Positions 7,725 to 54,627 are shown, counted from the first letter of the whole stretch. The stretch: 62,305 bases of DNA, filler included, from Basidiobolus ranarum (GCA_040143965.1; 8 parts of 8 records of this genome joined end to end with filler, not necessarily neighbours in it), one strand, 5' to 3'. The notes: generated by a model not told the origin, from the letters alone. Numbers and translations are program-made.

Positions 7725-7824
7725 NNNNNNNNNNNNNNNNNNNNNNNNNNNNNNNNNNNNNNNNNNNNTTAATTAATTAANNNNNNNNNNNNNNNNNNNN
7801 NNNNNNNNNNNNNNNNNNNNNNNN
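7725..7824. other. Artificial contig linker (44N-TTAATTAATTAA-44N)
   Basis: Identical 100-nt spacer with stops in all six frames; recurs seven times in the window. Confidence 0.98.
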
Positions 7825-15538: not shown

Positions 15539-15638
15539 NNNNNNNNNNNNNNNNNNNNNNNNNNNNNNNNNNNNNNNNNNNNTTAATTAATTAANNNNNN
15601 NNNNNNNNNNNNNNNNNNNNNNNNNNNNNNNNNNNNNN
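15539..15638. other. Artificial contig linker
   Basis: Same 44N-TTAATTAATTAA-44N spacer. Confidence 0.98.
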
Positions 15639-23349: not shown

Positions 23350-23449
23350 NNNNNNNNNNNNNNNNNNNNNNNNNNNNNNNNNNNNNNNNNNNNTTAATTA
23401 ATTAANNNNNNNNNNNNNNNNNNNNNNNNNNNNNNNNNNNNNNNNNNNN
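23350..23449. other. Artificial contig linker
   Basis: Same spacer. Confidence 0.98.
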
Positions 23450-24350
23450 TTTTCTTCAATGAATATGGTATCTCTGGAGTGATGGATTGATTTGTGCCAG
23501 CAATTAGGAGATGATAGCCTTTGTTCTGATATCCTAGTAGGATACATTTAATTGCCCTTTTGTCCAATTTCCTATGCTGGGGTTTAGGAATATGAGCATA
23601 TACTATTGATCCAAAAATCTGAGGTGATTTGGATTAAGCTTGTTTTGAGTCCAGATTTGAATAGAAGTTTTAGAGTCATGGTTGCTAAGTGTTGGACTTC
23701 TATTTTGGAGATATGTAGCTGTTAAAATAGCTTCACCCCAATAGGTCTCAGGCATATCTGAATCAATCAGCATTGTACATGCTTTGTCTACTAAAGTCCT
23801 ATTCATCTTCTCTGCAACTCCAATTTGTTCTGCACTATATGGAATAGTAATTTGCTGCTGAATTCCATTTTCTTGACAAAAGTTAGTCACGGCTTCATTG
23901 CTAAATACAGTTCCATTATCACTCCATAGGTATTTGATTTTTCTTCCTGTTAAGGTTGTAACCATTGCTTCATATATCTTGAAATATTGAAACACTTCTC
24001 CTTTGCTTGACAGAAGTTGTGAAACTGTGAAGTGAGATTTATCATCAATAAAGATGAGTAAATATTGTTGCTGAGTTGGTGTCCAAGCTTGCATTGGGCC
24101 AGATGAGTCTGTATGAATAAGATACAATAAATCTCTGGCTTTGCTAGCTCCTTCTTTTGGAAAAGGTCTTCTGGTGATTTTCCCTTCAATACACCTTTCA
24201 CATGTAGTAATAACTGAGGGCTTAAGATCTGTTCCAGTAGATGGGCTATTTTTATATAATAGTTTCACACTATTATAGATTAGAAGACCCAAGCACTGAC
24301 ATCAAGTCATCCAGTTTCCAGAAGTAATTGCTGCAAAGTTAGAAACAGTC
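23450..24350 (-). mobile_element. Ty1/copia integrase remnant
   Basis: CERCIEGK, IHTDSSGPM, SDNGTVF and EQIGVAEKMNRTL (rve domain); truncated by stops. Confidence 0.85.
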
Positions 24351-30081: not shown

Positions 30082-31152
30082 TGTTGAAATTAGCATTGCC
30101 TAAACACCTATATAGTCATATATGGCTTAGTACTTAGTTATCTTATAACTCACTAAGATACTAGCAATTATTCTCAATCAGAATTTACTCAGAATATTTT
30201 GACCAACTTAGAAGTTCTCAGATATATTTATTTTTCCAACTTTGTGCTAGAGGCCCCAAACTTTGCACACATGTTACTGGGACCTTCCTTAACACATTCT
30301 ACATATTAGTTTGTTTACATCTTGACAAAACTATAAATGTCAACTCTCTACTCAATAAATCAATAAGTGAAAACCACCAATTCCTCTGATTCTCCAAACC
30401 ACTTACAACAGGCGCCCAAATACTTTAACAGGTTATGAGCCCTGAGCTTGCACTCTCCATAATGTCTACTTCTCAAATTTATGGAACTTTTCCCTCTTCT
30501 GAAAAATTGGATGGAACCAATTATCAAGTTTGGAAAATTAAAATGAAAATGCTGCTGCATGAAAAGGGACTTTGGGACACTGTTGTAGGAGAAGAAAACA
30601 ATGCAAAACCTTCTGAAACCAAAGTTTTGCTCCAGGTTAAAAAAGAACAAAGTGCCTTTAGCACAATTTGTCTTAAGGTTAAAGACAAATTGCTAATTCA
30701 ATGTTCAAGAGCTAAAACTGCCAAGAAGGTAGGAAAAGCCTTGGAAGACACCTACCAAACATGTTCTGCTGCCAACCAAGATGCTTCTAAGAAGACAATT
30801 TTTTAACTTAAAGACAAAGCCAGGAGAAGACATTAAATCACTAATTAATAGAGTCACTATTTTAGTGGATGAAATGGAATGCATTGGAGTACCTACTACT
30901 GATCAAGATATCATAGTTATAGTCCTGAATAGCCTGCCACACAATTTTCAGAGCCTAGTAAAGGCTCTAGACTTAAGAACTGAAAATTTGACCTTAAATT
31001 AGGTATTTGGCAGTCATCTGGATGAAGATTTATGCAAATAAAGATTCAATCAAAAGAATGAAGAAAATGCTTTAATAGGCAATGGGAAACCTTCCTATAA
31101 AGGTCAAAAGCACTTTAAGAAGAAAAGTAACACATTCTGTGATTACTGTAAA
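30082..31152 (+). mobile_element. 5' end of a copia element (family B): LTR 30082-30430, PBS 30431-30444, gag
   Basis: TGTTG...TTAACA LTR followed directly by GGTTATGAGCCCTG; gag has KLDGTNYQVWKIKMKMLLHEKGLWDTV and VLNSLP. Confidence 0.88.
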
Positions 31153-31252
31153 NNNNNNNNNNNNNNNNNNNNNNNNNNNNNNNNNNNNNNNNNNNNTTAA
31201 TTAATTAANNNNNNNNNNNNNNNNNNNNNNNNNNNNNNNNNNNNNNNNNNNN
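31153..31252. other. Artificial contig linker
   Basis: Same spacer. Confidence 0.98.
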
Positions 31253-33399: not shown

Positions 33400-35197
33400 T
33401 TGAGCCAGTTGCAGCAAGGAATTGCTAATGCTAACCACAATCCACCAAAACTAACTATGTAAGTAAGTACCATGAGTATGAAACTTGAGTGGTATCATGG
33501 CAAAGCTTTTGAAAATGTTGGAACTTTGATCTTTCAGCTTGAGGAAGCCTTTAAAGTCAATGGAGTTCAAAATGCCAGCAAGCGACACTATGTAGCCTAC
33601 TATCTGATCACTGCAGTCTTTCAATTTTATAACTACAGAGCAAGAGCTGCAGGTACAAGAGAAATAGCAGCAATCACTACTTGGGAGCAGTTTAACATTG
33701 AAATTCATGATGGCTTTGAACCTCCCCATCTGCTGCTAATAATTAGAAGAAAATTAACATAGTTGAAGCAAGCAAAGACTGTGTAGGAATATATATACAA
33801 ATTCAGAAGCATAATGGACCATATCTACTGTATGCTTCAGCAAGACCAATTGCAACATTTTGCCCTAGGATTGAAAGGAATAACCAGGATAGAAGTAGAC
33901 TACCAAGCCCCAAACACCTTACAAAAGACAATCAAGATTGCAATAACCTATGATGCAGACATATATGGTGAGGGAAGACTATTAGCTACTGAGAACAAAC
34001 AACACTGAAGTTACCCCATGAGACCAAAGGAAAGAACTCCCATCATGATTAATTCCAGTAAAGGAGAGCTCACTATTGAAAAATGTAAGCAAAGACAATT
34101 ATGCTTCACATGCCAGAAGAAGGGACATTATGCTAGATATTGTCAGCATAGAAAGCCAAAGGAGAGTAAGAAAAGCTTTAACACTGTTGAGACTCTGCAG
34201 GCGTTAGAAAATAATCTGGTAGACAAAGCTGAGCCCACTTTGCAACACATTGCCAAATATCTTTGCAATGTGAAGAAGAGCTCAGGAAGACTGCTATGTT
34301 TGAATGGATTTATATGTGGGGCTAATGCCAGAATCATGATGGACTTAGGTGCATCACATGGGTTTATATCATCCTAATTTGACAACAAAGTACTAATCTA
34401 CTCAGATCCTACACCAAATACCGGAGTTTCTACTGCAGATGGAAGAGTAAACTGTCTACATTACATTGCTAGTCCCTGGTGTATCACTACAGGGGACTAA
34501 GAGGATTATATACAAGCTTACTTGTTTGACAGCTGTAAGCTTGACTTAGTACTTGGAAGGACAAGGCTATTTCAGCATAATACGTTTACTAGCTGGAAAA
34601 CACATGAGATTACTGTGACAAAAGAAGGCAAGAATTCTCAGCTTACCCCAGCTAAAAGGGAGTATAACCCTATCAAGACTAGCCTGAAGAATGATGTATC
34701 TACCGGTAAAAGCTGGTTTGGCCATACAGTCAGGAAAAATCAAGATATGTTTCCAATTACTATATTACAAGACAAGGAGTCAAATGATATCCCATTTGCA
34801 ATAAAAGAAGTAATGAAAGAGTATTATGATATGTTCCCAGAGGAATTAACAGAACTTCTATCTGCCATAGAAGTAGAACATGCAATAGATACAGCAGACA
34901 GTGAGCCTGTGAGAAAGCATCCTACTACATCAGTCCCTTGGAGCTACAAGAAGTTAAGAAGTTGATTAACCAACTCTTGGAGCAAGGATTCATAAGACTA
35001 AGCAAGTTACCATGGGGAGCACAAGTCTTGTTTGTCAAGAAGAAAGATGGAACCTGAAGATGGCTTGTTGATCATTGGGCACTGACCTCAGTCACTCTTA
35101 AGAACTGAACATCTTATCTGTAGGTTAGCAGAGCTACTGGATCCACTTGAAGGAGCCAAAATAGTAAGCAAAATTGAACTTGCATCAGGCTACAATC
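33400..35197 (+). mobile_element. Decayed Ty3/gypsy internal region (gag, protease, start of RT)
   Basis: CCHC knuckle CFTCQKKGHYARYC, aspartic protease MMDLGASHGFI, VEHAIDT and PWGAQVLFVKKKDGT RT motifs; interrupted at 35198 by a copia LTR end. Confidence 0.85.
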
Positions 35198-38100
35198 TGA
35201 TAAAAGTATTTAGGGGACTTGGAAGTGTCTTCGACAAGTTTTGGATTTGTGCTTTAGACTCTCAGGTTTTATTGAATTGAATATATCCTGTTGCTAGTTT
35301 ACTATGAAATTGGCTTTCAAAGTTTTGTGCATCAGGAGTAGGAGAGTATTCCAGAACTAAATCAAAAGTTCCTCTCAAATACATGAATATTTGATTTACT
35401 GCAGTTTTGTGCTCAGATCCTGTACTTTTGAGATATTGGCTGACAGTTCCTACCACCACAGCAATCTCTGGACATTTTCCAACAATTGTGTACATCAAAC
35501 TACCCACCATGGAGTGATAAGGGAACTCCTGGCTTTGAATTGAGTCTTTTTGGGCCAAACTGGATGCAAATTTGATCAATTTCACATTGGGATCTATTGG
35601 TGTTGATACAAGCTTACTACTCTCCATGTTGAAGTGCTTTATATAGGATGTATCCAGACTGATTCAGTATGATTTTTTGAAAGGGTGTTTTGCTCTTGAT
35701 CTTGGTTGCATGGAAATAACCCAATTCACCCATATAAGTCAAGTCATCCACATATTGAGCCAAGATACAGATCATATTTCTGGTTGTTTTCATGTAAATA
35801 CTTGACCTGCTAAGCATTTTTGGAATTATAGTGATTCTTGACCGGAATATATCTTGTTGTAACAAGCTGTGGGTGCTTACTTGAGTCCATATGGCAATTT
35901 CTGCAGCTTACAGACCATATAAGGATGTCAATCAATCCATCTGTTGGCCCATTTAGATCTCTTCTTCAAGATATCCATCCAGAAAGGCTATTTTTGCAAC
36001 TATTTGATGTAAATCAAGGTTATGGATGGCTGAGAGTGCCAGGATTAATCTAGTTGAGCTATACGTAGCTACTGGAGCAAAGATTTCATTAATAGCCACA
36101 CCTGGAGTCTGGGAATAACCTTTTGCAGCCAATCTTGCTTTGTGCCTTTTGCTAGTTCCATCAGCTTAGTGTTTAACTTTGTGGACTCATTTGCAGCCTA
36201 TTGGCTTTCTCCCTGATGGTAATGGACTTAAAACCAATGATTTATTGCTCTGAAGTGAAGCAAACTCATCCAACATTGCTTTTCCCCATAGTTATGATTC
36301 TGGACACTCCAGCGCTTGATCTAGAGTCTGTGGCTGATCATGGAATGCTGCATAAGCATCTACATCAAAAATGGGAGTGTATCACCAGTTTCCCAGCTTA
36401 TTTCTCCTTCTGGATGATCTTCTGGCTTCTGAATCATCCTCTGATGTCACTGGGACTACAATTGTGGTTAAATTGGGCTCAGATACAGCTGGAGTTTTGT
36501 CAGACACTGCCAGAATAGTGCTCCTTATGTTTTCTGAATCAAGAACTGTAACTTGAGGTGGAAATATGCTTTTTCATGAAAAATCACATCTCTGCATTTA
36601 ATTAACTTCTGATTTTTGGTTTCAAACAGTCTGAAGTCCTTTGATCCATCACAGTAGCCAAGTAATAATAATTATCTGCTTTTAGGTTCCAATTTAGAGC
36701 ATTGTTGAGCTGCAATTATGCAATATGCTGTGCAACCAAAGATCAAGAGATGATCCACACTTGGTTTTGATCCATATAGGGCTTCAAATGGAGTAGAAAT
36801 CTGTAGCAATCTTGTTGGGTATCTTGTCTTGATATAGACTGTATTAGTAACAGATCCAGCCCAATATTGGTATTCTAACTTTCAATCATGTTACATTGAT
36901 TTTGCCATCTCCACTATGGTCCTGTTAGCATGTTCCGCAACTCCATTTTGCTGTGGAGTATAAAGTACAGTAGCTAGTTGCTTAATTCCATGTTTAGAAC
37001 AAAAACTAGCAAAGTCTTTAGAGCAGTATTCTTCACCATTATCACTCCTCAGTACCCTTGTTTTTTGTGTACTGATTCTTTTTTTACCATTGCATTGTAG
37101 TGCTTTAACGTAGCTACAGTACTTACATGATTGATTCGTTCCAATTTTAGCTTTTTGGCAAAAATCCTTTTTCTAACAAAACTTGCAGATGATTGATTTT
37201 GTATTAGGGGCACCATTATTGAAGCCTGTTGGTTGTTTTACATCTCCAAAAATGCTTGTTCTGCATTGTTTTACTGAGAATTAGATCTCCTTAATTCCTC
37301 ATTGTTAAGCCCAGCATCAGCATATTCCATTGTTAATGGCTCTGATCTTGATTCTAGCGCTATTTTGAGGTTCCCAAACCTGTCTGGTTGGCTCACAAGT
37401 AGTGTCATGACTAAGGCATCTTCATTTAGAGGTGCTCCAATGGGTGAGAGGTGATCTGCCTTAGTTTTGAACCAATAGATATGATTAAGCATAACATCAT
37501 CAGAATTCATCTGATTTGAGAGTAATTTTAACTTAACATATTGTCCATTAGCCAGACTTTTAGTCTTGCTTAGTCCCTCAAGTGTTTTGCAAGCATTTTG
37601 CATGTTTTTGGCTGCTTATATGTGCCTTAATTGAGAGTCACAGAGATGTAGATAAAGTGTAGAGAGTGCTTTCCTGTGCTTCTTGTAAAAGGCAAGGATA
37701 GCTTCTGTGGTATCTATTGCCCTGTTTATTATCCTATAACAAATCCCCAAAGGTCCTTGTCTTCTTGCACCATTTGTATCTTGAACTTCCAAAGGTGAAA
37801 GTCTTCACCATCAAACTTAACTGTGGATGCAAAAACATTGGTAACAGCACTTGTAGACATTCCTTTAACAGCTAGCTTGGGGCTCATAATCTGATAAAAA
37901 TGTTCAGGGGATATGGAAGTGTTTCGGACAATATTTCAATTTGTGAATTAGACAATTAACTTTTGTTAAATTGAATATGTCCTCTTTATGGTTTGCTACA
38001 AATTAGGACAATTGGATGTGCTTAGATCATAACAGAAATAACTGTGAAGCATGAGTGCAAAATTTGAGGTGACTTAGAGAATTTTTGAGAAAATGGTGAT

Positions 38101-38951: not shown

Positions 38952-39051
38952 NNNNNNNNNNNNNNNNNNNNNNNNNNNNNNNNNNNNNNNNNNNNTTAAT
39001 TAATTAANNNNNNNNNNNNNNNNNNNNNNNNNNNNNNNNNNNNNNNNNNNN
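38952..39051. other. Artificial contig linker
   Basis: Same spacer. Confidence 0.98.
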
Positions 39052-39603: not shown

Positions 39604-39990
39604 TCAATTACTGAGAGAATCTACACCATTACTTATTAATGATCGGAGGTGGTCACGCAAGGAAACGCTTCGCTTCTTGGTGTGACCACAGAACCACCTT
39701 CCACATAAGTCATGTAAATCCCGCTTATCATTCATGGTAGATGGTTGTTCATGTACTATTTGCTCTTCAATTTTTACAGCAGTCGTCCGCTTAGAATCAG
39801 TGTTGGCTGTTTCGACTTGAACAACTACAGAGATTTCTTCACGTTTGGTATGACCGCAGAACCATCTACCGCACAAGTCATGAAGATCCCTTTTATCTCC
39901 TGCTACCGATTGGAAATGTTGATTTGTAGGTAAACTTTCTACGGTCAGAGTAAGAACAATAGAGACTACGAAGATGCTGATAAATTTCAT
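39604..39990 (-). CDS. Secreted Kex2-processed repeat peptide precursor 1 (2x DLHDLCGRWFCGHT)
   Basis: Signal peptide MKFISIFVVSIVLTLTVES|LP; cores at 39847-39888 and 39679-39720, each flanked by KR ... KR/KKR. Confidence 0.92.
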   Translation of the reverse strand: MKFISIFVVSIVLTLTVESLPTNQHFQSVAGDKRDLHDLCGRWFCGHTKREEISVVVQVETANTDSKRTTAVKIEEQIVHEQPSTMNDKRDLHDLCGRWFCGHTKKRSVSLRDHLRSLISNGVDSLSN

Positions 39991-40062
39991 GACTGTATTG
40001 GAAAGATACGTAGTGCTGATGTTGTAATAGAACTGATTGAAGAGTATCGCTCTGGCGCCTAG

Positions 40063-40316
40063 CTACTTATATGGTTTAACGGTCATATCTCGGGTAAAAT
40101 GCATTTCATCGGTTAATTCGTGATTCTCAGTCGCCTGATTCCTAGAATATTGGATTTTACAGATTAATTTAGATGATTCCTTGGGTAAATATCTTGATGG
40201 TGTCAAGAGACATCTCAGAAAATAAGGTTTTGACAGGCTAGTGGGCTTAGGCATTTCTCAGAACAAATATGATGAGACAGTGAAATCCCAGATTCTCAGT
40301 TGTTGGATTCCTTGAA
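40063..40316 (-). promoter_or_regulatory. Representative promoter of the precursor genes: TATAAGTAG plus several TTCnnnGAA palindromes
   Basis: TATA at 40063-40071 (paralogous sites 41073, 42236, 43253, 45072, 46335); TTCnnnGAA at 40139, 40255 and 40308. Confidence 0.65.
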
Positions 40317-40629
40317 TATATATTATTTTGTACAAGTTGACCTTTTTGATAGCGTGATTTTAAAGCATTGATTCTCGCCCAATATCACGATCAATTTATC
40401 CAGATATAGATTTGAGTATAGTAGAATATTCCCAATTTAGTAGATTCACAAAATGCCAATAAATTATATTAACACCAGATAGTTTATTAAATGTTAATTG
40501 AGAGTCAAGAAAGGGGGAGTATTCAAAATCACCACAGGTATGTTGACAAAAAGATAAGAGAAAACTGACTCCCGGACAGTAAAGTAATTAAATAATATGA
40601 TTAGTTAAATGCGGTAATAACTATGATGT

Positions 40630-41001
40630 TCAACTACTCAGATTGTGAGCAATTTCCTCCTTATAAGATCTAAGATAGTTGCGAAGAATAACGCTTCTTT
40701 TTCTTGTATGTCCGCAAAACCATCTGCCACAAAGGTCATGGAGATCTCGCTTGTCGCTAGTAAGTGATTGTTCACGCACTGTTTGCCCCTCACTTTTAGT
40801 AGAGTGGTTGGTGGACGATGATTCGCTTGACCCTACTGGAGATTGATTCTCACGTTTAGTGTGACCACAGAACCACCTGCCGCACAGGTCGTGTAAGTCT
40901 CTCTTGTCTCTTGCTAATTCTTTGGTACCTTGACCCATAGGCAGGCCTTGAGCAGCCATAGTGAAGACAAAAGAAGCAACTAACATGGTAGCAAATTTCA
41001 T
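40630..41001 (-). CDS. Peptide precursor 2 (2x DLHDLCGRWFCGHT)
   Basis: ATG at 41001 (MKFATML...AQG|LP); dibasic-flanked cores. Confidence 0.92.
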   Translation of the reverse strand: MKFATMLVASFVFTMAAQGLPMGQGTKELARDKRDLHDLCGRWFCGHTKRENQSPVGSSESSSTNHSTKSEGQTVREQSLTSDKRDLHDLCGRWFCGHTRKRSVILRNYLRSYKEEIAHNLSS

Positions 41002-41965
41002 GATGGTATTGAAAGATATTTGGGGTTGATATGTTAACAGCACTATTTGATAAATCTCACACTGTCACCTAGCTACTTATATAGTTTAGCGACTTTTTCT
41101 CGTGTGTTGGAGGCAAAAATCAGGTTCATGTTGCGGAGTTGATTGATTCCCAGAACGCGTATCAGGTGACACACATTGGCGTAATATGAATTAAAGTATT
41201 CTGCCTGCTATATTTCTTTACCAAAGTTGTAATATTAAACTTAATTGAAAATCATTCATGTACGCTGACTTATGGTTTTCATCTTCCCGTATTGGAGCAC
41301 GCTTCTGAATGCTAATCCCACTTTCAAACTTGTACTGTTCACCAGGCAACATATCAGAATAGGATTCTCTACCTTCATTACTTTTATATGCTACTGAAGC
41401 AGCAAGAAAACTAAAGCGAATCGCATGATTCTTGGAAAAAACTGGGAAGTATACCATCCCGATATCTAATCTCTTTAATAGTGTAACTATCATTCTGCGA
41501 AGGTTATGAAATCAATTAAATGATTCGTGTTTCTCACTTGGTTGATTCCCAGAATACAAATTTGGTGACACCACAGAACAGGTACCTCTACAAAATCAAT
41601 TTTATTCCGCTAATCTAAAATTATTGACTATACTAACTATCTTCACTATCTGACATGCTCTAGTCAACACGCGTTTAGGATAAAAATGGTAGAGTGAATT
41701 TTAGCATGAGAGACGATAATTCAAGTCAAATATTAAGGTATTCCACTTTATATACAACATATTGTTAAGTCAGTTAGTTTCTAACAAATATACATCTCTA
41801 TACCAAATGCTCTCTTGATGTACGACATACAGATATTAATAAATTGAATACGAAAGGAAAAAGTTCAAAATTATGTCAGTTTAGCTAGTGAAAAAGTATC
41901 AAAAAACCACGGTTAACGGAAGATTGCTTGTGCATTGATGGCGATGATCTTAAGCATATGTATTG

Positions 41966-42172
41966 CTATGAAATACTGAAATCAACTGGGGTATTACTTT
42001 GCCCTGCTAAAGGGATTTCCGCACGCCTAGTGTGGCCACAGAACCACCTACCACATAAGTCATGAAGGTCTCTTTTATCTTCCGCTGCAACCTTGAAATC
42101 TAGATCCAAAGGTAGACTTTGTACTGTTAAAGTGAGAACAGTAGAAAGTAAAAGTATACTGGTCACTTTCAT
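41966..42172 (-). CDS. Peptide precursor 3 (single core, 68 aa)
   Basis: MKVTSILLLSTVLTLTVQS|LP...DKR-DLHDLCGRWFCGHT-RR; stops within the spacer region. Confidence 0.85.
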   Translation of the reverse strand: MKVTSILLLSTVLTLTVQSLPLDLDFKVAAEDKRDLHDLCGRWFCGHTRRAEIPLAGQSNTPVDFSIS

Positions 42173-42827
42173 AGTTATATCAGAAATATAATGAGTCAAT
42201 AGAACAGTTTGAATAGCATCATCTCCTCATTTGTTTACTTTTATAGTTCAATAGCCATGGCGAAGACAAAATGCATAAAGTAGTGGTTTGATTCCTAGAA
42301 TGGTACGTTATACAACTAATCTGAATGTCACCAACTCTACTGAATATTTCAATAATCAAGAGAGGCACTTTTGTTAAATATTTCTTAGAAAAAATACGAT
42401 GAGACAGTGTCATTGATTCACTTGTTGCATTCCTAGAATATCCAGTGATACAAAGTGATATCTCTAACCATTTCAAGATTAAGCAAGTTACCTTTTAAAA
42501 TGTCCCGGTTGCTTTATCCGGATACATTGACGTTTAACATGATATGCATATAATTCAGAAATACTAGTGATATTTTTAATTTGTTCTGGCTAAAGATCAC
42601 TAGATAATGATCGATGAACGATAATTAAGAGGAAAATATCAAAATTTATTTTAATTACTTGTTTGTTGACAAAAAGGTTGGTAATAACTGACATCTGGGG
42701 CGTGGAAATGTGCTTGATATACTACTTACAGAGATATAGCCATATTCCCAAAGGACTAAAAAGGTAGCAGTAGGTAATAAGTTGCTTTATGGTGTAGTGC
42801 TTAACTGTGGAAATAGTTCACATGTTC

Positions 42828-43208
42828 TTATTTTGTGGATCTGAGATTGTTACGGAGTATAACACTTCTTTTTCTGGTATGCCCGCAGAACCATCTGCCA
42901 CATAGGTCATGTAAATCTCGCTTGTAACTTGTGGTGGTGAGCAATTGCTCATTGACCGTTGTCTTTTCAATCTTAGTTTGTTCTGAATCGACAATTGGGG
43001 ATTCATCTACACCCACTATAGAGGCTTCTAGGACAGATGTTACTGAAGATGCATCCTCGCGTTTAGTATGGCCACAGAACCATCTGCCGCACAGATCGTG
43101 TAAATCTCTCTTGTCTCCTGCTATTGTTTGGACGCTTTGGTCTATAGGTAGGCTTTGAACAACTAATGATACAACAGTAGAAGCAACAGCTAAGGTGGAG
43201 AATTTCAT
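42828..43208 (-). CDS. Peptide precursor 4 (2 cores, shortened tail)
   Basis: MKFSTLAVASTVVSLVVQS|LP; the upstream ATG at 43247 lies only a few nt from the TATA box, so 43208 is preferred. Confidence 0.92.
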   Translation of the reverse strand: MKFSTLAVASTVVSLVVQSLPIDQSVQTIAGDKRDLHDLCGRWFCGHTKREDASSVTSVLEASIVGVDESPIVDSEQTKIEKTTVNEQLLTTTSYKRDLHDLCGRWFCGHTRKRSVILRNNLRSTK

Positions 43209-44161
43209 GGCTGAGAAAGTGAATCGTGAAGAATGATACTCGGACATCTAGTTACTTTTATAGTTTAGTCAACATATCTCAAAGTGCTTCTCAGTTGGCT
43301 GATTCCCAGAATACAAATTGAGTAGTACGATCCGTAAATGGATGGAGCAGGTTAAGCTTTCGTGCAAAATCGAGTGCATCCATAAGACATTGGATCAGAG
43401 GTTATCGAACCTTGGCTCAACGTAATAATATAATAATGACAACAAAATAGTATGGCGTAGATTATCGGATTAACTACACATACATATATAACAGATAAAT
43501 TCAGAGTGAAGATTGTCCATCATTATCCACTCCGGCGAATATCTCAATAACTTCAAGAGATATCTCTAAAGTATGTTTCGGTAATTTGACTACTTATTGA
43601 ACTTACCGAGAATTTCTTAGTAGAAATACAGTGAGACAGTGTCAGCTAGATTCGAAGTGGTTGAATTCCTAGAATAACACAAATTGACATTTCATACAAT
43701 ATGAGGATAAAACATGTTAATCTCCCTAGAATTTCCGGATTGGTTTTTCTCATAGCCATTTTCTACTTGGATATATGCATAAGAACATCTACGATAAGTC
43801 AATTCTTGTGAGATATTAGATGAACTATCACCATGTTCTTATTTTAGCGAACATACAAGGAAGAGAAGCGTAATTCTTCGCGTGAGCCTATCTAACTATT
43901 CCATATATATTCAATCATGAATACTCTGAGTTAATGATCGGCTATACACAGGCTGGAAATATGCTTACATAACCAGGTCAATTCTGGTTTAAATATACTC
44001 ATCAAACTGGTATATGTTCGAAGTATAGTACTCTGTGAATGAGGCTAATAAAAGTTAACCGTCACATTATCTCATACTACTCATTCTAAGATGTCTTCAA
44101 GAAGGAATATAAATATCTGCTGCTAACTTTACTTTAATAACATTGAATCAAGATTACACCT

Positions 44162-44551
44162 ATGAAGCTCTCCAGTATGATTATTACTTCTGTCATTCTT
44201 ACTCTGACAGTTCAAAGTCTACCTACGGGTCAAATCTTCAATGGATTAGCTGGAGACAAGAGAGACCTGCATGATTTGTGCGGCAGATGGTTCTGTGGTC
44301 ATACTAAACGTGGTGAAGAAGAATCCCTAACGAGCTTAACTGATGCAGCAGTCACCAACACGGAGCTAAAGACTCTCACCAAGACTGAGGAGCAGAAAGT
44401 ACATGAACAGTCATCCACTACTAACGACAAGCGGGATTTACATGACCTTTGTGGTAGATGGTTTTGTGGCCACACTAAGAAGCGAGGCATAACTCTACGT
44501 GATCATACAAGGTCTGAACTCAAGAAAAGTATAGAACATTTACGTAGATGA
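44162..44551 (+). CDS. Peptide precursor 5 (2 cores)
   Basis: MKLSSMIITSVILTLTVQS|LP; KR-flanked cores. Confidence 0.92.
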   Translation: MKLSSMIITSVILTLTVQSLPTGQIFNGLAGDKRDLHDLCGRWFCGHTKRGEEESLTSLTDAAVTNTELKTLTKTEEQKVHEQSSTTNDKRDLHDLCGRWFCGHTKKRGITLRDHTRSELKKSIEHLRR

Positions 44552-45169
44552 AGACTGTAACACGAAGCAGTCTTTTAATAGTGTGAATTTGTTTGTGAGT
44601 GCGATATACACAATTCGTCAAATGATTAGTTCAGTTGATACATCCTACATTTCACCTACTAATTTATCAAGCCATTCATCACTGACCCGGAGTCAGTTAT
44701 CTTACCCTTGCTTCAACAATACTGTTGTAATTTTGTACTCTCTTTATTTGACAAATAATTGAAACAATAAATATTCTAATATCGACATGCTTTGCTTAAA
44801 ACAGAGTGTTATTCATCGCAGTTATCTCCAATATGTGATAGAACATATACCGGACAGCCAAAGTAGCTGAGTATTATATAGTAATACCGCTACAGGGTCA
44901 GATATTATAATCGCAGGTAATGTGTTTAAATCCATCCAAGTTTAATCCGGTTGAAATGTACTAAGTTGGAATGTAATTCATTCGAATCACAAAATGTTCT
45001 GGGAAAGCAGATACTCAGAATTACTGATTGCTCCAATGTTTACTATACATTCTCAGAAAATCACTAAAACGTATAAGTAGCCAACAAATAGAGCATACAT
45101 CCTCCGATCTCGTCACTTCTTCTATATCATCGACACTACAACAAACTTGACTATCTTTCCACTGCAATA

Positions 45170-45628
45170 ATGAAGCTTACCAGCTTATACGTCGCCATTA
45201 CTCTGTTTACCTTGACTGCTCAAAGTCTACCTATGGGACAAGGCTACACGGCATCAACAGCAGATAAACGAGACTTACATGCCCTATGTGGAGGATGGTT
45301 CTGTGGCCATACAAAGCGTATGGAAACATCTCAGGAGAGTGGACTAGGCTTACCAATTACCAACTCCAAAAATGGAGCTCATATCAAAGAGGAAGATAAG
45401 GAACTCTATACACCCAACGACAAAAGAGACCTACATGACCTGTGTGGTGGGTGGCTTTGTGGACACACAAAGAGAAGTATCACCTTACGTGGCAACATCA
45501 TCTCTGCAATAAAGAAGAGTGCAGAATACTTAAACGATCAAATCCTTTACAACAAAGCGAGGTCAGAAATAGTAAAAGATGTTAACCATCCTGGCCTTGA
45601 TCGTTTTTGTGGAGGCTGGTTCTGCTGA
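45170..45628 (+). CDS. Peptide precursor 6 (variant cores DLHALCGGWFCGHT and DLHDLCGGWLCGHT; C-terminal degenerate LDRFCGGWFC)
   Basis: Same signal and pro-region architecture with substituted cores. Confidence 0.9.
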   Translation: MKLTSLYVAITLFTLTAQSLPMGQGYTASTADKRDLHALCGGWFCGHTKRMETSQESGLGLPITNSKNGAHIKEEDKELYTPNDKRDLHDLCGGWLCGHTKRSITLRGNIISAIKKSAEYLNDQILYNKARSEIVKDVNHPGLDRFCGGWFC

Positions 45629-45815
45629 TGCATTAGCCACTTTAACAGTATATATATAGCTAATTCGAACATGTAATATTTAATTTTGACAATGGTTTCT
45701 CACTGCGATTTTGGCATCAAAATAAAAGAAGTTGGTTTATGTTGAGATTGAGAGCTATTAAATCCACTATATCTACTTTATAAAGAGAGTTTATATGTAT
45801 ATTATATGTTAGTAG

Positions 45816-45875
45816 GGAAGACGAGATCTACATGACCTATGTAATAACACTAAACACGGAGAAATATCGCTGGGG
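45816..45875 (+). pseudogene. Remnant of a peptide core (GRR-DLHDLC-NN-TKHGEISLG)
   Basis: AGA CGA GAT CTA CAT GAC CTA TGT at 45819-45842; preceded in frame by TAG, with no signal peptide. Confidence 0.7.
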
Positions 45876-46409
45876 ATCATGGTGGTATTACCATTATATA
45901 AACTACGTATTGAAATTTCAAGTCCTTATGCTGATACAAACACTCCAGACATTGAAGGAGATTTAATGATAGCATAGCAGTATATTCTGTTATTAAGAGT
46001 TACTTTGACTATCGAAGGCACTGCAGAGATCAACCAGCTCTATCGTCATAAAATCGAATATATCGATTTTGTGTCACTTAATATTCTTGGAATACATCAA
46101 CTGAGAATCCGGAATGACACTGTTTCATCGTATTCTTTCTAGGAGACACCTACTAAGAGCAATAATCAAACAAATGGTAAAAATGTATTTTCTGAGTTAT
46201 TACACGGTATTAGCAAGATACTCACTAAAATCAGGAGCCATCTAACTTAGCCTGTACAACCTAAGGTTCTGGGAACGAGGCGAGAGAGTATCGCAAATGA
46301 TATGTATTTTACTCGAGATGCGGCCTCTAGATTATATAAGTAGTTAGGTGATAGAACGACAGTCTTCAAGTAATTCTGTTGCAACATCAATCTCAAGTGT
46401 TCTTCAAGT

Positions 46410-46743
46410 ATGATTATGAAATTCATCAGCCTATTTTCGGTTTTTACGGTTCTTACTCTGACCGTACAAAGCCTGCCTGCAGATCAAAACTTTAGAGCTG
46501 TCGCAGAAGATAAAAGAGATCTTCATGACTTGTGCGGAAGATGGTTCTGCGGTCACACAAAACGCCAGGAAATCTCTGAAGATGATAGAAGCGAAATACC
46601 GATTATTAACTCTAAGCAAATTACTCCTAAAATGGAGGAAACAGTGCATACACAACCACCTACCGTCGGTGACAAGCGAGATCTACATGACTTGTGTGGT
46701 AGGTGGTTCTGTGGGCACACTAAGAAACGAAGTGTTTCCTTAA
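46410..46743 (+). CDS. Peptide precursor 7 (2 cores; 3' end cut by contig end)
   Basis: (MI)MKFISLFSVFTVLTLTVQS|LP; two KR-flanked cores, then KKRSVSL into the linker. Confidence 0.92.
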
Positions 46744-46843
46744 NNNNNNNNNNNNNNNNNNNNNNNNNNNNNNNNNNNNNNNNNNNNTTAATTAATTAAN
46801 NNNNNNNNNNNNNNNNNNNNNNNNNNNNNNNNNNNNNNNNNNN
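46744..46843. other. Artificial contig linker
   Basis: Same spacer. Confidence 0.98.
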
Positions 46844-53899: not shown

Positions 53900-54527
53900 T
53901 TACTCGCCATTGGGGAGTAGCCACCTTCGAACTGCCCAACGCACCAAATACTGTCTTGTGGTGATCTTCGTTGTCGTAGCGTAGAGTTCTGTGGATACTG
54001 TGGGAGCAAGCAAGTGTTGGGTAGGGATGAATCCCGGTGATATAGGACTGAATGGTGGTGCACAGGTATAATCATTCTGCGGAGATATTGAGCCATACTC
54101 CTTTATCAAGTCTTCACTAATTTTCATCCATGCTTGCTTTAAACTAGGGTCAAAAAGAAAGACCACCGCCGTAATGGTTCCAGGACTAGCAGCAGTGATC
54201 ACACCACCGACATAGACCCAATATGGAAACTCTCCTTGGTGGTAAGTATAGACTGCATTTATTAGTTCGAACATGCGGGTGAATAGCGATATCATTGGGT
54301 ACCAGGCCACTCTGTATGCTGCCTGTTTGATGGATTCAAATGCGCTTCTTTGAGTAATACTAGAGAAAGGAACCTTCTTTCCCCCTCCGAATTCTAGTTC
54401 TATTTCTCTGGATCGGGCGTATATCTTCTTTAGGACCACAATAATCGTGAAGGCGAAGTATGTGACTGCTATTAGTACCCAGATATAGTAACTTGCCCAT
54501 TCCCATATATACCCATCAAGAAGACCT
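53900..54527 (-). CDS. 7TM / GPCR-like membrane protein, C-terminal part (cAMP-receptor/Git3-like; 5' cut by contig end)
   Basis: Three hydrophobic helices with RVAWYPMI and GTITAVVFLFDP (TM6/TM7-like) followed by a cytoplasmic tail. Confidence 0.55.
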
Positions 54528-54627
54528 NNNNNNNNNNNNNNNNNNNNNNNNNNNNNNNNNNNNNNNNNNNNTTAATTAATTAANNNNNNNNNNNNNNNNN
54601 NNNNNNNNNNNNNNNNNNNNNNNNNNN
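54528..54627. other. Artificial contig linker
   Basis: Same spacer. Confidence 0.98.

Follow-up and report, generated by a model that had tools for sequence, protein, structure and literature searches.

In the genome of the fungus Basidiobolus ranarum (GCA_040143965.1), a 62,305-nucleotide stretch, hereafter the window, contains at 39604-46743 a tandem array of seven small genes predicted to encode secreted pre-pro-peptides, each carrying one or two copies of a 14-residue, two-cysteine core peptide bracketed by dibasic sites. The comparisons presented here support very strong purifying selection on the peptide and on the dibasic sites that flank it, with silent sites and the rest of the precursors diverged to saturation, and we consider that the peptide is most likely an extracellular signal. 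The window consists of eight small contigs joined end to end, so that gene order across the linkers is uninformative; the array contig (39052-46743, 7692 bp) has linkers on both sides and is taken up entirely by the peptide genes.

The array is arranged in two divergently oriented blocks with an ATG-to-ATG spacing of 1008-1246 bp. The block on the minus strand includes g1 (39604-39990, 128 aa, core 1 at 39847-39888 and core 2 at 39679-39720), g2 (40630-41001, 123 aa counted from the ATG of MKFATML, cores 1 and 2 at 40858-40899 and 40705-40746), g3 (41966-42172, 68 aa, with a single core at 42029-42070) and g4 (42828-43208, 126 aa, cores 1 and 2 at 43065-43106 and 42876-42917). The plus-strand block is formed by g5 (44162-44551, 129 aa, cores 1 and 2 at 44264-44305 and 44435-44476), the diverged g6 (45170-45628, 152 aa, cores at 45272-45313 and 45428-45469), and g7 (46416-46743, cores 1 and 2 at 46518-46559 and 46680-46721), which runs for 109 residues up to the contig end. 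None of the genes has an intron, and all seven retain their reading frame, signal peptide, dibasic sites and promoter; g5 matches residues 7-135 of the B. ranarum protein K7432_012430 (NCBI) without a difference.

The precursors share a common layout, namely a signal, a 12-residue pro-segment, K-R, the first core, K-R, a spacer, K-R, the second core, K/R-K-R (K-R in g6) and a tail of 15-52 residues. Every N-terminus begins with M-K followed by 15-17 hydrophobic residues up to (V/A)-(Q/E)-(S/G)-L-P, which by inspection, together with a helix modelled by AlphaFold2 (AF2) at residues 2-18, points to an endoplasmic reticulum (ER) signal peptide of about 20 residues. The spacers are fast-evolving, acidic or Ser/Thr-rich, and vary between 35 and 47 residues with insertions and deletions. 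A K-R pair precedes each of the 13 cores (D-K-R in 12 of them), and a dibasic site (KR, KK(R), RK(R) or RR) follows each. Six genes have two cores; g3 stops 20 residues past its only one, with no second core downstream, its closest paralogue (P0010, on another contig) having two, and it may be a copy that has been truncated, or else function with its single core.

Conservation outside the cores is also found at the start of the tail, where the pattern K-K/R-R-S-V/I-x-L-R-x-x-L-R-S (e.g., 39604-39678, minus strand) has five columns at least 90% conserved among 21 family members. AF2 renders this segment as a helix with a predicted local distance difference test score (pLDDT) of about 56-64, and it may represent a further product or a signal for sorting or processing. 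The long tail of g6 carries a C-terminal third Cys loop, CGGWFC (45608-45625), and ends in DRFCGGWFC, with no dibasic site ahead of the loop, which would therefore remain attached to the tail peptide. The same long third-loop tail is present in the paralogues P0020 and P0027, defining a diverged subfamily with Gly8 cores.

Cores were searched by degenerate back-translation, with 100 dinucleotide-preserving shuffles as the null. Thirteen were found at 39679-46721, all on the strands of the seven small open reading frames (ORFs), against none expected from the shuffles. Eleven of them translate to DLHDLCGRWFCGHT, and the two cores of g6 are variants, DLHALCGGWFCGHT (45272-45313) and DLHDLCGGWLCGHT (45428-45469). 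An earlier note on this DNA had described the core peptide as invariant, which holds for 11 of the 13 cores and six of the seven genes but not for g6, where both cores vary. The same note's account of silent codon differences was accurate, its three quoted strings matching exactly core 1 and core 2 of g1 and core 1 of g5, and its description of the spacers as highly diverged agrees with their varying length, their indels and a pooled proportion of non-synonymous differences (pN) of 0.394. Among the 11 identical cores, two to five codons are used at 13 of the 14 codon positions, Trp being the only residue that cannot vary; any two of them differ in DNA at 3-12 of the 42 bases (8.0 on average), none being an exact copy of another. 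The canonical peptide has a mass of 1659.8 Da in the reduced state (approximately 2 Da less if disulfide-bonded) and a charge of -1.1 at pH 7, which is -2.1 in the Gly8 forms.

For the analysis of selection, pooled Nei-Gojobori proportions were obtained for each partition over all gene pairs. Core 1 and core 2 showed synonymous proportions (pS) of 0.93 and 0.84 with pN values of 0.029 and 0.033, respectively, and the flanking KR codons a pS of 0.77-1.04 with a pN of 0. The other partitions gave pS 0.64 and pN 0.278 (signal), 0.49 and 0.360 (pro), 0.70 and 0.394 (spacer), and 0.82 and 0.308 (tail). Raw pN/pS is thus about 0.03-0.04 in the cores versus 0.38-0.73 elsewhere, and every non-synonymous core difference involves g6. 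The Jukes-Cantor-corrected dS, and hence dN/dS, is undefined for the cores, KR codons and tail (pS above 0.75), and proportions together with counting tests were used instead. By counting, the 11 identical cores require at least 23 synonymous changes and no non-synonymous change, with a neutral probability of 2e-17 to 7e-13 when 18.6-29.7% of point mutations are taken as synonymous (kappa 1-8). Furthermore, pairwise codon identity at degenerate positions of the cores was 0.445, versus the 0.411 predicted by how these genes use codons outside their cores; the silent sites in the cores are essentially randomised.

The same picture emerged when each window gene was compared, at the protein level, with the closest paralogue outside its contig (72-83% identity). 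Differences were found at 5 of 182 core residues and at none of 26 K/R residues, and at 69 of 235 residues in the spacer, 34 of 120 in the signal, 23 of 83 in the pro-segment and 39 of 145 in the tail; core and spacer differ with a Fisher p of 3e-14, the pairs not being fully independent. The earlier note had attributed the core identity to purifying selection on the peptide and had predicted a lower dN/dS in the core than in the spacer: the partitioned values, taken as pN/pS, bear this out, and the counting of changes, the random codon choice and the outside paralogues concur. The locus constitutes a clean case of a selection-frozen peptide against saturated synonymous sites.

The upstream regions also have elements in common. 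The motif TTCTRGGAA occurs 10 times in the window, nine of these on the array contig, whereas 1.44 matches were expected and at most four were seen in 100 shuffles; a looser form, TTCNNGGAAT, has 12 matches against 2.6 expected, again with nine on the array contig. All nine array-contig TTCTRGGAA sites lie on the strand of the downstream gene. Proximal copies are located 95-173 bp upstream of the ATG in six of the seven genes, i.e., g1 (40139-40147), g2 (41147-41155), g3 (42292-42300), g4 (43303-43311), g6 (44997-45005) and g7 (46267-46275), g5 having only a degenerate version, and distal copies are found at 41546, 42430 and 43666. In addition, a TATA-like box, TATA(A/T)AAGTA, can be aligned in all seven upstream regions about 60-90 bp before the ATG; the example in g1 lies at approximately 40047-40080 (minus strand), as read from the direct repeat family D5, which covers g1 and g2. 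We take TTCTRGGAA(T) to resemble a TTC-N3-GAA half-site pair, and its GGAAT part a TEA/ATTS-type site. This common promoter element suggests co-regulation and high output, and suggests that one transcription factor may drive the entire array.

Beyond the window, the family comprises in B. ranarum at least 23 genes with 44 cores, from which 31 have the canonical peptide and four the Gly8 form. In the gene models of Basidiobolus meristosporus, six of seven cores read DLHDFCGGWFCGHV, and the majority peptides of both species share positions 1-4, 6, 7 and 9-13, differing at positions 5, 8 and 14. The B. meristosporus count may be inflated, as some models seem to merge tandem single-core genes or to predict them with overlap. 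The models P0022 and P0026 repeat the signal-peptide sequence internally, and in each of them the annotation seems to have joined two single-core genes lying in tandem; the unit in this species may be a one-core gene. Besides g3, single-core members include P0021 and the B. meristosporus models P0023 and P0024.

Protein searches returned 21 matches in a word-indexed search of 5.8 billion proteins, 23 matches of 4059 candidates in a profile search, two of 149 candidates in a search among shorter proteins, and seven matches at E <=0.001 in an exhaustive phmmer search of 1.84 billion representatives. In all of them, every credible match came from B. ranarum or B. meristosporus CBS 931.73. The sole non-Basidiobolus match, obtained with phmmer, was a 1728-aa protein (E 7e-4, 27% identity) which we took as a chance similarity. 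A PDB search with a 23-residue core segment gave three non-significant matches at E 0.4-1.6 (a C2H2 finger and antibody knob domains), and a language-model feature search with the B. meristosporus model P0028 reached at best 0.88, to a fungal cluster, with all values below the 0.9 lead threshold. In Pfam, g1 and g6 matched no family at cut-off; the sub-threshold matches to DUF7586 (20.1 bits, cut-off 27), Int_N (18, cut-off 27) and zf-RING_13 (21.3, cut-off 25) were treated as noise. A text search of the literature found no paper with DLHDLCGRWFCGHT, CGRWFC, CGGWFC or DLHDFCGGWFCGHV, the supplementary lists of the surveys on repeat proteins processed by Kex2 (KEPs) lying outside its coverage, and the literature matches listed on Basidiobolus with pheromone and Kex2 and on Zoopagomycota pheromone receptors contained nothing on the peptide family. 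Taken together, the family is a genus-restricted, undescribed fungal secreted-peptide precursor of known type.

By analogy with the alpha-factor and KEP pathway, the precursors would be cleaved by signal peptidase in the ER, cut after each dibasic pair by a Kex2-type protease in the Golgi, and trimmed of their C-terminal K/R residues by a Kex1-type carboxypeptidase, so that each two-core precursor would give rise to two molecules of the same anionic 1.66-kDa peptide. A disulfide between Cys6 and Cys11 probably closes a six-residue ring, CGRWFC. The mature peptide would then most probably bind one conserved partner in a sequence-specific manner and act as an extracellular signal, i.e., a pheromone or an autocrine or density cue. 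Pheromone and neuropeptide precursors show this combination of a frozen mature peptide and free-running pro-regions, which is the reverse of the usual toxin or antimicrobial pattern; because of this combination, and of the differences between the two species at three positions, we favor the signaling role. Weighing against it, pheromone genes are usually few, and at least 23 genes for a single peptide denote bulk production, which also suits a structural, nutritional (metal) or defensive role. Moreover, the synonymous sites are saturated, so omega can be given only as raw pN/pS ratios, and the pairwise counts are phylogenetically non-independent. The earlier note had regarded the pattern as that of a receptor-bound ligand; the fit is real, but it does not discriminate, since the core of a peptide made by ribosomes and modified after translation (RiPP), a metal-binding peptide or any peptide with a fixed target would show the same. 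A receptor-ligand role is one plausible candidate.

A more specific proposal is that the disulfide-looped 14-mer, produced from dozens of co-regulated genes, is a species-specific pheromone or self-signal and would represent the first peptide signaling in the zygomycete-grade fungi (Zoopagomycota); we put this forward tentatively, as a possibility that is rather less than probable. Peptide signals are well known in Dikarya and essentially unknown in early-diverging fungi, and to our knowledge trisporoid apocarotenoids are the only known mating signals of the zygomycete-grade lineages. The family offers a candidate of 14 residues that is cheap to synthesise, along with natural variants (the Gly8 forms and the B. 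meristosporus form), from a fungus that is widely associated with the vertebrate gut and occasionally infects humans and animals. In a bolder version of the signaling role, the C-x4-C ring peptide would act as a hormone mimic on the amphibian or reptile host. The precursors of the vasopressin/oxytocin and urotensin II types likewise combine dibasic processing and a conserved mature peptide with variable pro-regions, and share a C-x4-C ring with aromatic and basic residues. The array peptide differs from these animal hormones in having no significant similarity in the PDB or exhaustive protein searches, no amidation signal, and a fungal producer.

Among the other roles considered for the peptide, that of a RiPP precursor is unlikely, although it survives best. 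Under this explanation the core would be the substrate of a tailoring enzyme introducing cross-links at Cys, Trp, Phe or His, the product would be a modified peptide, and conservation would come from enzyme recognition and bioactivity together. The invariant residues are indeed the reactive ones (C6, C11, W9, F10, H3 and H13), and Basidiobolus is rich in secondary-metabolite clusters according to portions of two reports (PMC7466969; 10.1101/2025.03.31.646025), the latter a 2025 preprint that reports 19 sequenced genomes of the genus. The signal peptide and the repeated Kex2-bracketed cores are also the architecture of ustiloxin-type (dikaritin) precursors as outlined in excerpts of PMC7329392. 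However, the dikaritin core is given there as Tyr-x-Ile-x, a motif absent from the array core, DLHDLCGRWFCGHT having neither Tyr nor Ile, and in Table 1 of that survey a gene for the DUF3328 (UstYa) oxidase stands beside none of 185 Zoopagomycota KEP genes. The array contig shows no DUF3328 gene and no ORF of at least 110 aa besides the peptide genes, the contig (7.7 kb, ending inside the array) being too short to exclude a nearby enzyme.

An antimicrobial peptide (AMP), or an effector or toxin directed at the host and made in bulk in the amphibian or reptile gut, is quite unlikely. Amplification to at least 23 genes fits a product needed in quantity, and the fungus lives among gut bacteria, as stated in passages of PMC7466969 and PMC12400927. 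Nevertheless, the peptide is short and anionic, also in its Gly8 forms, unlike cationic amphipathic AMPs. Its conserved core with diverged pro parts is the reverse of the AMP and toxin pattern: in amphibian AMP and conotoxin families, the prepro regions are usually conserved and the mature peptides hypervariable.

A secreted scavenger of zinc or copper, with His3, Cys6, Cys11 and His13 as ligands, with or without Asp1 and Asp4 (H-x2-C-x4-C-x-H), is improbable. The six candidate ligands are kept in the majority peptides of both species, the differing positions 5, 8 and 14 being non-ligand, and such a role suits bulk production; there is also a weak zinc-finger likeness (zf-RING_13 in g6 and the PDB C2H2 finger at E 0.4), but these similarities fall under every threshold. 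Gly7, Trp9, Phe10 and Gly12 are conserved equally with the proposed ligands, the cysteines of secreted peptides are normally oxidised, and we know of no KEP-derived metallophore, which counts against this role as well.

It is very improbable that the product is a small folded secreted protein that is left uncleaved, with the two cores as structural repeats. The two Cys pairs per protein could make inter-repeat disulfides, but the AF2 model of g1 on the 21-sequence alignment had no confident fold (mean pLDDT 49.3, predicted template modelling score 0.22, spacer pLDDT 34-46). In addition, the spacer varies in size with indels, the dibasic flanks are invariant, and single-core genes occur (g3, P0021, P0023 and P0024).

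Lastly, a non-selective origin of the core identity (recent duplication, gene conversion, assembly collapse or sequences that are not genes) is hardly credible: tandem arrays are prone to conversion and this assembly is broken into small contigs, but no pair of cores is the same in DNA, the randomised synonymous sites count against conversion and recent duplication, the longest similar DNA tracts among copies are 63-87% identical, the two cores within a gene are no closer (mean 10.5 differences per 48 nt) than cores of different genes (9.1-10.5), and the retention of frames, signal peptides, dibasic sites and promoters in all seven ORFs speaks against non-genes. Recent duplication, conversion and collapse, which the earlier note had also dismissed, are ruled out by the synonymous-site data.

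With the selective origin of the identity in place, the history of the copies can be partly followed. The relation of first and second cores was assessed from the distance matrix and the preceding Arg codon, as 42-48 nt of saturated sites cannot resolve a tree. Mean distances per 48 nt were 9.6 between first cores, 9.1 between second cores and 10.5 between first and second cores, and the Arg codon is AGR ahead of core 1 in six of seven genes and CGR ahead of core 2 in five of six, with both exceptions in g6. This codon split and the slightly smaller same-position distances indicate that the internal duplication preceded the duplications of the genes. A maximum-likelihood tree joins each of g2, g3, g5 and g7 to one gene from another contig with starred support; outside genes also group with g1 and g6, at support that is lower or unresolved, and the position of g4 is unresolved. 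The pairings across contigs imply that the subfamilies predate the duplication of the array. The family is amplified by gene duplication and not by the addition of repeats inside one gene.

This mode of amplification distinguishes the array from the precursors that it most resembles. KEPs, as characterized in excerpts of two surveys (Le Marquer et al. 2019, PMC6339444; Umemura 2020, PMC7329392), are likewise small secreted precursors with near-identical peptides between KR, RR or KK sites, variable spacers and no Pfam domain, and the array genes would work like them, judging from sequence and analogy. KEPs raise the number of copies through repeats within a gene, whereas the array family does so through genes with two cores, or in some cases one, and both surveys demand at least three repeats according to the same excerpts. 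With fewer than three, the array family falls outside the operational definition of a KEP and is probably uncatalogued, which reveals a blind spot of these surveys: a precursor below this repeat number is discarded even if its peptide is amplified via gene copies. In the excerpted parts of the second survey, B. meristosporus is the KEP-richest of 1461 strains, with 43 KEPs, and the Basidiobolus type S-3 is characterized as rich in Tyr and Asp, which does not fit the array core (PMC7329392).

The two-cysteine alpha-pheromones of Sordariomycetes, Leotiomycetes and some Dothideomycetes have the same pre-pro architecture, Kex2/Kex1 logic and drifting spacers, and their mature peptide, which is conserved, 10-14 residues long and contains Trp and two Cys, as given in parts of PMC6339444, is similar to the array peptide. 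Conversely, their Cys spacing is C-x6-7-C instead of C-x4-C, and they belong to another lineage and are encoded by one to three genes, compared with dozens in a member of the Zoopagomycota. The X-Ala/X-Pro dipeptides for Ste13 after KR, a signature of alpha-factor in the same source, are replaced by D-L at the start of all 13 array cores. Neither MF_alpha nor MF_alpha_N gave a Pfam match for g1 or g6 at E <=0.01, and in the language-model feature search with P0028 an MF_alpha cluster ranked only fifth (0.81, below the 0.9 threshold). Membership of the array genes in MF_alpha was thus rejected on the grounds of the Pfam result, the lack of Ste13 dipeptides and the Cys spacing.

The eight pieces of the window are sorted by size (7724, 7714, 7711, 7703, 7699, 7692, 7684 and 7678 bp), with a G+C content of 34-39%, and are separated by artificial linkers at 7725-7824, 15539-15638, 23350-23449, 31153-31252, 38952-39051, 46744-46843 and 54528-54627, each consisting of 44 N, TTAATTAATTAA and 44 N. 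As the window is made of joined contigs, its other genes, which include a P-type ATPase, a NIPA transporter, retroelement fragments and an ORF similar to seven-transmembrane proteins, are not neighbours of the peptide array. The latter ORF (53900-54526, minus strand) is a multi-pass membrane protein resembling the last helices of a fungal G-protein-coupled receptor and is cut by the contig end; it had no Pfam match at E <=1 and no PDB sequence match at E <=10, and was dropped as a candidate neighbouring receptor because it sits on a different contig. Two adjacent paralogous ORFs of about 670-720 aa on one contig (9655-11823 and 12347-14362, both plus strand) look like a duplicated F-box/leucine-rich-repeat-like pair; the first, the one scanned, gave a weak sub-threshold LRR_4 match (23.3 bits, cut-off 27). 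Finally, five retroelement-like ORF fragments are spread over three contigs (23603-24292, minus; 30435-30806, plus; 34018-34965, plus; 35262-35627, minus; 37271-37603, minus), and by eye they read like pieces of Ty1/copia-type gag, integrase and reverse transcriptase.

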